The notes below the pieces were generated by a model. The model saw only the letters and a list, made by a program, of their open reading frames with translations. It had not been told where the DNA came from and did no database searches. Of a DNA stretch of 64,000 bases, positions 23,740 through 23,931 are shown piece by piece. The DNA lies in contig JBBDXR010000028.1 in NCBI GenBank assembly GCA_040902205.1, positions 7,390 through 71,389 of the forward strand, written 5' to 3'. Position 1 is the stretch's first letter. Each line of letters begins with the position of its first letter. The stretch is from Anaerolineales bacterium (lineage in GTDB: Bacteria; Chloroflexota; Anaerolineae; Anaerolineales; UBA11579). A program made the position numbers and the translations under genes.

Positions 23740-23931
23740 ATGTTCAACAGCACAAAGATCAGATTCAGCCAGCCCTGCGGTGGTGGGGTAGGAACAGGAC
23801 CCTCGTTTGCCCAGCCTTGCGGTGGTGGCATCGGCACAGGCCCAAGCTTCGCGCAGCCCTGCGGCGGCGGCATCGGCACTGGGCCTTCGTTCGACCAGCC
23901 CTGTGGCGGCGGCATCGGCACCGATCATTAA
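23740..23931 (+). CDS. repeat peptide, 4 x QPCGGG(I/V)GTGPSF(A/D); candidate multi-core RiPP precursor
   Basis: Strong SD ggagga lies 6 nt before the ATG. The four repeat units are identical in amino acids but differ at synonymous codon positions. Confidence 0.7.
   Translation: MFNSTKIRFSQPCGGGVGTGPSFAQPCGGGIGTGPSFAQPCGGGIGTGPSFDQPCGGGIGTDH
23770..23925 (+). repeat. 42-nt in-frame tandem repeat (3.7 copies)
   Basis: Units start at 23770, 23812, 23854 and 23896. Confidence 0.95.

Follow-up and report, generated by a model that had tools for sequence, protein, structure and literature searches.

In Streptomyces, the large regulator AfsR combines a SARP domain, a STAND NOD and a TPR region (PMC10936776), and directly 3′ of afsR lies afsS, a small gene that AfsR activates (PMC10832544, PMC2267785). 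The AfsS protein of S. coelicolor has 63 amino acids (aa) with three 12-aa repeats, and that of S. avermitilis has four repeats in 87 aa; among AfsS homologues identity is only 17-38%, yet all carry two to five repeats, and it is via these repeats that AfsS binds AfsR (PMC10832544, PMC2267785). Regulators of the SARP type recognise direct repeats whose period is 11 or 22 bp and whose 3′ copy lies 8 bp from the −10 element, so that the repeats take the place of a −35 element (PMC10936776). Here we describe a 63-aa open reading frame (ORF) at positions 23740-23931 of a 64,000-nucleotide stretch of an Anaerolineales genome (contig JBBDXR010000028.1; hereafter the window), the product of which consists largely of tandem repeats. 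It represents a previously undescribed tandem-repeat microprotein family, found within a module of Chloroflexota that is made up of a regulator, a LigA-like protein and a Gly-rich partner.

Two aspects of the locus were missed by the original prediction made from the window, namely the adjacent BTAD regulator and a conserved direct-repeat promoter, and this context makes AfsR/AfsS the closest analogue. In both systems a gene encoding fewer than 100 aa (63 aa in both) lies directly 3′ of a regulator of about 1000 aa on the same strand, and two to five tandem short repeats (three to five in the present family) form most of the small protein. In both, the regulator joins a STAND NTPase, TPRs and a BTAD/SARP module, direct repeats are placed just 5′ of the −10 element in lieu of a −35, and the repeat sequence diverges strongly between lineages while the architecture stays. 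Because the locus matches AfsR/AfsS in gene order, size, repeat architecture and regulator domain set and, apart from the repeat period, is similar in promoter geometry, the reading that we tentatively favour, as a possibility rather than a probability, is that the peptide is an AfsS-like small repeat protein which would be switched on by the adjacent regulator and probably act on it.

The peptide gene and its ribosome-binding site are located as follows:

23728-23733, + strand: Shine-Dalgarno (SD) sequence GGAGGA of the peptide gene, 6 nt 5′ of the ATG (from the sequence)
23740-23931, + strand: gene for the 63-aa repeat microprotein (exact ORF and translation), with repeats spanning 23770-23928

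In the peptide, an N-terminus of 10 aa is followed by three units of 14 aa and one of 11 aa, in the order MFNSTKIRFS, QPCGGGVGTGPSFA, QPCGGGIGTGPSFA, QPCGGGIGTGPSFD and QPCGGGIGTDH. The 42-nt units of the gene start at 23770, 23812, 23854 and 23896, and Tandem Repeats Finder reports a 42-nt period over 23769-23921 (3.7 copies, 79% matches). The ORF, translation, unit starts and SD spacing given in the original prediction are all exact, and its statement that the units differ mostly at synonymous positions is borne out. Pairwise comparison of the window's units yields 36 synonymous and 11 non-synonymous codon differences, 45 of the 60 nucleotide differences fall at codon position 3, and so do 13 of the 19 variable alignment columns (binomial P = 0.002). 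When the three full units are compared in all frames, frame +0 has 23 synonymous versus 4 non-synonymous codon differences, and four of the five alternative frames have 0-5 synonymous and 20-27 non-synonymous differences. The mirror antisense frame (17 synonymous, 8 non-synonymous) owes its synonymous excess to its complementarity to frame +0, and possesses neither a conserved start codon nor an SD. All four Gly codons are used interchangeably in the gene. Whether homologues might lack the synonymous bias, an outcome that had been named as telling against the gene, was also examined: the bias recurs in 26 independent peptides of related genomes (695 synonymous versus 120 non-synonymous codons), with 762 of 923 within-gene unit differences at codon position 3. 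Taken from sequence, the retention of SD and ATG in all intact copies, the synonymous excess and the superiority of frame +0 identify ORF 23740-23931 as a genuine small-protein gene with purifying selection on every unit.

A protein homology search with the peptide (HMMER) returned zero matches at E ≤ 0.1, which is likely due to the short, repetitive and compositionally biased query. The neighbouring 71-aa gene was therefore used as an anchor and combined with a degenerate DNA-pattern scan. The anchor retrieved 19 species-representative genome loci (locus identifiers below begin with L), and in 17 of these the equivalent slot holds an intact peptide ORF that encodes 54-74 aa and 3-5 repeats; in the remaining two, L010 and L020, the peptide copy is decayed. 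Metagenome contigs were scanned with a two-unit pattern regardless of genomic context, and of the 120 stretches obtained 13 are true family members, the remainder being unrelated Gly-rich proteins. All 13 adjoin the 71-aa gene and/or the regulator. The search for homologues of the unit that the original prediction had proposed thus gave nothing with HMMER and succeeded with the DNA pattern. Altogether, an intact peptide with 3-5 units occupies the equivalent slot in 30 related loci, an identical peptide gene is present on one Logan contig, and in every intact homologue the ATG lies 5-8 nt 3′ of a GGAGG- or AGGAG-type SD. The suspicion that the ORF could be the end of a larger, misassembled gene was rejected, since the small ORF is found, each time with an SD, ATG and stop of its own, in independent assemblies, including the complete chromosome L012 (CP075367).

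The two loci with decayed copies (L010, 5615-6000; L020, 5616-6000) belong to one lineage represented by two metagenome-assembled genomes (MAGs). Only 1-2 units are recognisable in the degenerate copy, which has Gly-to-Val changes and apparent frameshifts, and the promoter box, regulator and 71-aa gene are intact. The peptide may truly have decayed in this lineage, or the assembly may be wrong within the repeats.

Among the 26 peptides, the unit number is 3-5 and the unit length 12-15 aa. The family consensus of the unit reads [QYHRG]-P-x-G-G-G-[IV]-G-[TGS]-x-(P)-linker, and its core P-x-G-G-G-[IV]-G is invariant across the family. Position x is Cys only in the window and its nearest relative, L002; the other relatives have L, M, V, R, I or T there. 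In several lineages Gly, Ser or His stands in place of the Thr of the unit. Most units are Pro-flanked (P/xGGGIGTGP/); the second Pro is absent from L004, L006, L034 and L046. The residue at x is uniform over nearly all units within one peptide and differs between lineages; a single deviating unit was seen only in L015, L062 (there at position x) and L097, and in all other peptides the lineage-specific residues are uniform across the units. Parallel substitution selecting for identical units was considered as an explanation and the claim was dropped. When units are compared across genomes, identity between the same positions is about equal to identity between different positions, with slightly higher identity within a genome, and concerted evolution is therefore sufficient; as far as the alignments go, the uniformity fits concerted evolution followed by synonymous drift.

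Only 7-13 residues lie 5′ of the first unit, and these are linker-like (RFSQP versus SFAQP), so the window-clade peptides can be described, on their sequences, as leaderless. They have no hydrophobic or signal segment, and no known family in Pfam or NCBIfam matches the peptide above its cut-off. AlphaFold2 run on the single peptide sequence gave a predicted local distance difference test (pLDDT) score of 42 and no secondary structure, and the peptide on its own is therefore probably disordered.

The regulator gene and the elements that frame the peptide gene on its 5′ and 3′ sides are as follows:

20324-23554, + strand: 1076-aa regulator with MalT-type STAND NTPase, WHD, TPR sensor region and C-terminal BTAD of the SARP activator type (Pfam, NCBIfam)
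23616-23651, + strand: hairpin and subsequent T-run that form the intrinsic terminator of the regulator gene (terminator scan: 10 bp stem plus TTTTTGTT)
23666-23686, + strand: direct-repeat box CTCATAGATGCGTTCATAGGG, candidate operator of the BTAD regulator (most conserved intergenic columns)
23694-23699, + strand: −10-like hexamer TAGTAT (conserved in the intergenic alignment)
23962-23967, + strand: SD AAGGAG of the 71-aa gene (from the sequence)
24221-24289, + strand: two stable hairpins 3′ of the 71-aa gene (folding −39.5 kcal/mol, z = −3.5)

The NTPase part of the regulator is recognised by the NCBIfam model MalT over residues 6-486 (E 3e-76), the sensor region by Pfam TPR_12 (E 4e-24) and the C-terminus by Pfam BTAD at residues 930-1069 (E 5.6e-18). 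A WHD_MalT domain is annotated in the protein on the Pfam-annotated identical contig, and the BTAD region aligns to AfsR (PDB 8hvr, E 9e-4). The stop codon of the regulator gene at 23554 and the ATG of the peptide gene at 23740 are on one strand, and a regulator orthologue is found 5′ of the peptide in every locus that extends that far. The fastest-evolving part of the regulator is the TPR segment, which is 71% identical to that of L002, the closest relative, as opposed to 94% for the NTPase domain.

Between the regulator and the peptide gene, the terminator (folding −18 kcal/mol, z = −3.1) is conserved in both its hairpin and its T-run in an intergenic alignment of 16 loci. The box downstream of it contains two copies of TCATAG(G/A), at 23667-23673 and 23679-23685, which are 12 nt apart. 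Its form CTCATAGnnnCGTTCATAGG is invariant and occurs once per locus 5′ of the peptide gene in 25 loci, and the box is unique within the window. The −10-like hexamer reads TAGAAT in most relatives and lies 8-9 nt 3′ of the second repeat. A sigma-70 scan of the peptide promoter found no canonical −35/−10 pair, the −35 being absent; the promoter consists of repeats 8-9 nt ahead of the −10 with a period of 12 nt. In the distant loci L149 and L150 (below), which have other repeats, the period is 11 nt. The 42-nt spacer between the peptide and the 71-aa gene (23932-23973) contains no terminator and is unstructured (−1.9 kcal/mol, z = +0.7); across loci this spacer measures 29-56 nt and always ends with an AGGAG-type SD. 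The two genes thus appear from this layout to be co-transcribed, with the peptide as the first cistron of a two-gene operon. The hairpins at 24221-24289, which the + strand terminator scan missed because they have no clean T-run, are probably the end of that operon. No RNA family of Rfam matches the region.

The second gene of the operon is the obligate neighbour of the repeat peptide:

23974-24189, + strand: 71-aa LigA-like protein, predicted to be all-helical, divergent member of the Os1348/Frankia_peptide group (NHLP clan) (profile searches)

Its direct matches are weak, both to NF038399 (Os1348 family NHLP clan; E 3e-4, 20.8 bits, cut-off 40) and to PF14407 (Frankia_peptide; E 0.007, 17 bits, cut-off 48), and the profile of the protein gives a similarly weak match to the Os1348 structure (PDB 6lk7, E 0.07). 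There are 57 close homologues with 67-94% identity, and all of those with an organism name come from MAGs of Anaerolineales/Chloroflexota. A search of 1.8 billion representatives with the profile brought up 119 related clusters, among which P0103, P0116 and P0148 pass the NF038399 cut-off and many carry PF14407. Because these intermediates exist, the 71-aa protein can be placed by its sequence as a divergent sister group within the Os1348/Frankia_peptide superfamily. AlphaFold2 predicted five helices at low confidence (pLDDT 62), and Foldseek found nothing significant for this model in the PDB. With 99% identity to L002, the protein is more strongly conserved than RuvB.

Os1348 itself is an 85-aa all-helical protein from Pseudomonas sp. 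Os17 that forms a stable dimer and has been connected with antibiotic activity and with GNAT, HEXXH and SagB-type genes (PMC7726476). The ECOD group 'LigA-like' unites Frankia_peptide with the NHLP/NHase-alpha, Nif11, ComX and DurB leaders, and also contains the peptide-recognition domains of enzymes acting on RiPPs (peptides that ribosomes synthesise and that are modified after translation); TglI is listed in the same clan of RiPP leader and recognition domains (PMC12353581). It is to these putative RiPP precursors (PMC7726476, PMC12353581, PMC8939145) that the partner, not the repeat peptide, is comparable, being a small and, by prediction, helical relative. Unlike them, the 71-aa protein scores below the curated cut-offs and has no linked maturases; in the window clade it ends in a tail of only about eight residues, with neither a C-terminal core nor a GG cleavage motif. 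Os1348-like domains were also seen fused to a response-regulator receiver domain (P0104, 205 aa) and to an uncharacterised 260-aa C-terminal region (P0141, 324 aa), and in L151 a free-standing 171-aa gene lies 3′ of the Os-like gene. The fusions hint at a role in signalling or protein interaction beyond that of a precursor.

The contexts of nine distant Os1348-like proteins, 34-57% identical to the 71-aa protein of the window, served as outgroup. Wherever the contig reaches far enough (that of L141 is too short to judge), a MalT-WHD/TPR/BTAD regulator, or its visible part, adjoins the Os1348-like gene. The outgroup promoters that are readable have direct repeats specific to their lineage, with a period of 11-12 nt and placed 6-9 nt before the −10:

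L144: repeat GTTGATAGG, two copies; −10-like GATAAAT
L146 and L152: repeat ACGTTTACCCCT, two copies; −10-like TATAAT
L151: repeat TTGTTGAGG, two copies; −10-like box not clear
L149 and L150: repeat TGTGTGACT, three copies; −10-like TATAAT (L149) and TAGACT (L150)

A Gly-rich partner gene is present in all nine distant loci, in one of two forms. The first encodes a 51-62-aa pre-peptide with a hydrophobic segment, resembling a signal or transmembrane segment, and an 11-12-residue Gly-rich tail (EPICGNSGCGG, APACGDGGCGGG, CPAGSSGSGCY, GCDLSGGGACGG and TPVSGGGGGTGG). The second is a protein of 166-265 aa with one to four PPG[FYW]GGxGG motifs, most examples of which have a signal-like N-terminus; the signal-like segments of both forms were judged by eye. 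No Pfam or NCBIfam family matches these outgroup partners. Given that the nine distant modules carry other Gly-rich partners, the four-repeat peptide of the window is best described, on sequence and gene order, as the form in which this clade fills a conserved slot, that of the 'Gly-rich partner', in a module of three components. Furthermore, L004, L095 and L150 contain tandem duplications of the pair of Gly-rich partner and Os1348-like gene, copied as one unit.

The duplicated loci differ in the state of their copies. L004 (5000-6213) has three 71-aa genes and three peptides, one decayed, one with a single unit and one with three units; L095 (minus strand, 440-1572) has two 71-aa genes and an in-frame stop in its first peptide; and L150 (5001-7039) has two full pairs. 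The outgroup N-termini MKARIQFG, MKVRIQFG and MQLSLQF (L146, L152 and L144) are faintly like MFNSTKIRFS, MFKTVKIQMN and MSKIQAN of the window clade, and this likeness, over very short stretches, may reflect common descent of the peptide slot.

On its 3′ side the module is followed by a signalling gene:

24336-27521, + strand: 1061-aa protein with five GAF domains and HD-GYP, a predicted cyclic di-GMP (c-di-GMP) phosphodiesterase (Pfam GAF five times; HD_5, E 4e-37)

Its translation contains the motif HQERYDGNGYP. The gene lies 3′ of the module in 19/19 genome loci, a GAF-HD protein is likewise found there in the distant L146 and L152, and it is possible that this neighbour is the output of the module. 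Its start is ambiguous: the longest ORF begins at TTG 24336 (1061 aa), and the public call on the identical contig at 24348 (1057 aa). The gene order shared by the 19 loci is DegV, nucleoside phosphorylase, regulator, peptide, 71-aa gene, GAF-HD-GYP, QueA, DUF2905, RuvB and UPRTase. No modifying enzyme, protease or transporter is encoded within ~6 kb of the peptide in the 19 species (YcaO, radical-SAM, lanthipeptide, ATP-grasp, SagB and protease genes being specifically absent), or within 10 kb on the Pfam-annotated identical contig, in agreement with the original prediction, which had found no modifying enzyme nearby. The same loci and contig contain no GNAT, HEXXH, SagB or ATP-grasp genes near the 71-aa gene and no metal-homeostasis genes nearby.

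According to the AfsS-like model, the BTAD regulator would bind the TCATAG repeats in the manner of a SARP and turn the operon on. The peptide would remain in the cytoplasm and, like AfsS, act back on the regulator. Each P-x-GGG-[IV]-G unit would be one regulator-binding epitope, most plausibly for the fast-evolving TPR region. With three to five such identical sites, the peptide could modulate the regulator protomers or bridge them, and downstream signalling may pass via the conserved GAF-HD-GYP neighbour. The features expected of a cytoplasmic partner are present, in that the peptide has no signal sequence, leader or modifying enzyme and is predicted to be disordered. Moreover, a fast TPR segment together with lineage-specific peptide residues is compatible with co-diversification, without being proof of it. 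The two systems differ in their hosts (Chloroflexota here, Actinomycetota there) and in the type of NTPase, which is MalT-type here and NB-ARC-type in AfsR.

Several observations speak against the AfsS-like model. The unit xP-x-GGG-[IV]-G-[TG]-x-P is unlike the published AfsS motifs TxxDNHMPxxPA and NTHITD; the regulator has the order NTPase-TPR-BTAD, the reverse of the SARP-NOD-TPR order of AfsR; and the period of the direct repeats is 12 nt, as opposed to the canonical 11. The 71-aa LigA-like partner has no counterpart in AfsR/AfsS and is not explained by the model. Because no OmpR-type winged helix-turn-helix was detected ahead of the BTAD domain (Pfam at E ≤ 10 and PDB sequence search), we can only infer that the regulator binds DNA. 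Fast evolution of TPRs is common and no specific sign of co-evolution, and concerted evolution can explain why the units are uniform. Finally, the Gly-rich partners of the outgroup look exported when judged by eye, and an extracellular product would therefore fit better than a cytoplasmic co-regulator.

The original prediction had suggested a multi-core RiPP precursor. More broadly, the 63-aa product could be a precursor holding several copies of a short peptide that is released by processing and is either a RiPP or serves, unmodified, as a signal or antimicrobial. We hold this explanation, the main rival, to be rather unlikely without being far-fetched. Unlinked enzymes would then cut out, and perhaps modify, the four units, the 71-aa protein would be a leader or recognition partner in trans or a second component, and the TPR regulator would sense or control the product. 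Near-identical short units, each conserved at the amino-acid level and under purifying selection, are indeed shared with multi-core precursors such as those of cyanobactins and multi-core microviridins (PMC5934393), and the Pro bracketing of most units could provide prolyl-peptidase sites, but the second Pro is missing from the four loci named above. The partner gene, whose RiPP-leader-like clan the original prediction overlooked, favours a RiPP link through its kinship with Frankia_peptide, NHLP, Nif11, ComX and TglI (PMC12353581) and through the association of its relative Os1348 with antibiotic activity and with GNAT/HEXXH/SagB genes (PMC7726476); the absence of a core region and a GG motif and the scores below family cut-offs diminish this point. 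Also in favour are the joint duplication of peptide and 71-aa gene and the occupants of the outgroup slot, signal-like pre-peptides with 11-12-residue Gly/Cys-rich tails of the size of one unit. However, no leader or recognition sequence precedes the units and no export signal is found in the window clade, and the linked maturase and protease of known multi-core precursors (PMC5934393), as well as a transporter, are absent over the distances given above. Conservation in the units falls on Pro, Gly and Ile/Val, on which known RiPP chemistry acts poorly, and not on Cys, Ser, Thr or crosslinkable acidic or basic residues; Cys is not conserved, and Thr gives way to Gly, Ser or His in several lineages. 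The repeated units of the proposal therefore stand, whereas its leader, linked enzymes or transporter and conserved Cys do not. In RRNPP signalling, a TPR receptor-regulator is encoded beside a small peptide gene, and the locus shares with it this arrangement, the lineage-specific peptide residues and the fast-evolving TPR. Its STAND and BTAD regulator is nevertheless unrelated to the HTH-TPR proteins of RRNPP systems, the window-clade peptide has tandem units and no secretion signal instead of a single C-terminal mature peptide, and no Opp-type importer is linked. A split RiPP-like circuit, which strikes us as quite improbable, would have a leaderless four-unit substrate, the 71-aa protein as leader or recognition domain in trans that presents the invariant P-x-GGG-[IV]-G units to unlinked processing enzymes, and release of Gly-rich peptides that the STAND-TPR-BTAD regulator would sense. 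Were it true, peptide signalling in this circuit would be autoinducing, would feed into the turnover of c-di-GMP and would be widespread among filamentous Chloroflexota.

Alternatively, the peptide may be a cytoplasmic Gly-rich effector or structural microprotein that is controlled by the regulator and does not act back on it. It could, for example, serve as a disordered protectant, form an assembly of the polyglycine-II type or join the 71-aa helical dimer-type protein in a complex. The predicted disorder, the very high Gly content, the strict pairing and co-duplication with a highly conserved 71-aa protein, the stable helical dimer of Os1348 (PMC7726476) and the recurrence of a P-x-G-G motif in the partner proteins of distant modules would all suit this role. 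We nonetheless think it improbable, as there is no structural family match in Pfam or NCBIfam, no specific mechanism is offered, and the contrast between fast-changing unit positions and a near-invariant 71-aa protein argues against the variable residues contacting that protein. A regulatory leader peptide, i.e., an upstream ORF in which Gly/Pro stalling or glycyl-tRNA sensing controls the 71-aa gene, would explain a short, Gly-codon-rich ORF located directly 5′ of, and apparently co-transcribed with, a small gene. This is very improbable, since the spacer has no terminator, antiterminator or SD-sequestering fold (−1.9 kcal/mol), the 71-aa gene has a strong SD of its own, there is no Rfam element, and four to five long, precisely conserved units go far beyond what a stalling motif needs; the interchangeable use of the four Gly codons is the opposite of a tRNA-sensing leader. 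The lowest likelihood of all, close to negligible, is that of a copper- or thiol-type metal-binding repeat which, in analogy with the prion octarepeat PHGGGWGQ, would act through the Cys of each unit. The motif shape is shared, P-C-G-G-G-I-G-T of the window running parallel to P-H-G-G-G-W-G-Q with one Cys per unit, and there is a weak match to Pfam Prion_octapep (PF03991; E 0.001, 19.5 bits), but this score is below the gathering cut-off of 32, most relatives have L, M, V, R, I or T where the His/Cys ligand would be, other ligand residues are not conserved, metal-homeostasis genes were not found nearby, and organism and context are unrelated. The prion-like metal-binding reading was rejected for the variable ligand position and the sub-threshold score, and the likeness is a convergent low-complexity resemblance only. 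The description of the peptide as Cys/Gly-rich in the original prediction accordingly fits this genome, not the family, and the residues that replace Cys in the relatives contradict its role as the key site of modification or metal binding.

If the AfsS-like reading is true, the combination of a large STAND/TPR/SARP regulator with a tiny repeat partner recurs beyond Streptomyces, in a distant phylum. The action of the AfsS repeats is poorly understood, and the present family would be a second, independent system in which to study it, with the advantages of a simple invariant epitope, P-x-GGG-[IV]-G, and of natural variation in the number of units and in the variable residues. The three-part module, itself undescribed until now, also provides the first consistent genomic context for a branch that is annotated only as putative RiPP precursor, and it links the Os1348/Frankia_peptide-like family to c-di-GMP signalling proteins. 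That HMMER found none of these repeat microproteins, although dozens exist, illustrates how easily gene callers and HMM searches overlook them.

Elsewhere in the window, a low-GC block (16500-20150; 38-42% GC versus ~56-63% in the flanks) separates the nucleoside phosphorylase from the regulator as an insertion that is absent from 18 related genomes. It contains ORFs at 17469-18125, 18122-19486 and 19458-20102 and, upstream of these, a thymidylate-kinase-like gene; the products comprise two proteins resembling thymidylate kinase, one of 454 aa with weak dCTP-deaminase-like and SLATT-like matches, and a 214-aa orphan. One of the kinase-like proteins has a weak match to the PADLOC candidate family PDC-M51B (E 2.6e-11), and the block is probably a defence island, acquired horizontally and directed at nucleotides. 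Another tandem repeat in coding sequence, at 13671-13829 (48-nt period, 3.3 copies, 89% matches), forms part of the Ala/Pro/Lys/Glu-rich C-terminal tail of ribosomal protein S16 (13668-14216, minus strand). Around some of the distant modules, long intergenic gaps are filled with multi-copy repeats of ~40-60 nt (e.g., cagttgcgcggagcgtgc...ggc), namely at 5186-5472 and 5659-6000 of L144, 1-262 of L145 and 3341-6000 of L148, the last of which has ~1.7 kb without a called gene; they look like elements of the repetitive extragenic palindrome (REP) or miniature inverted-repeat transposable element (MITE) type.

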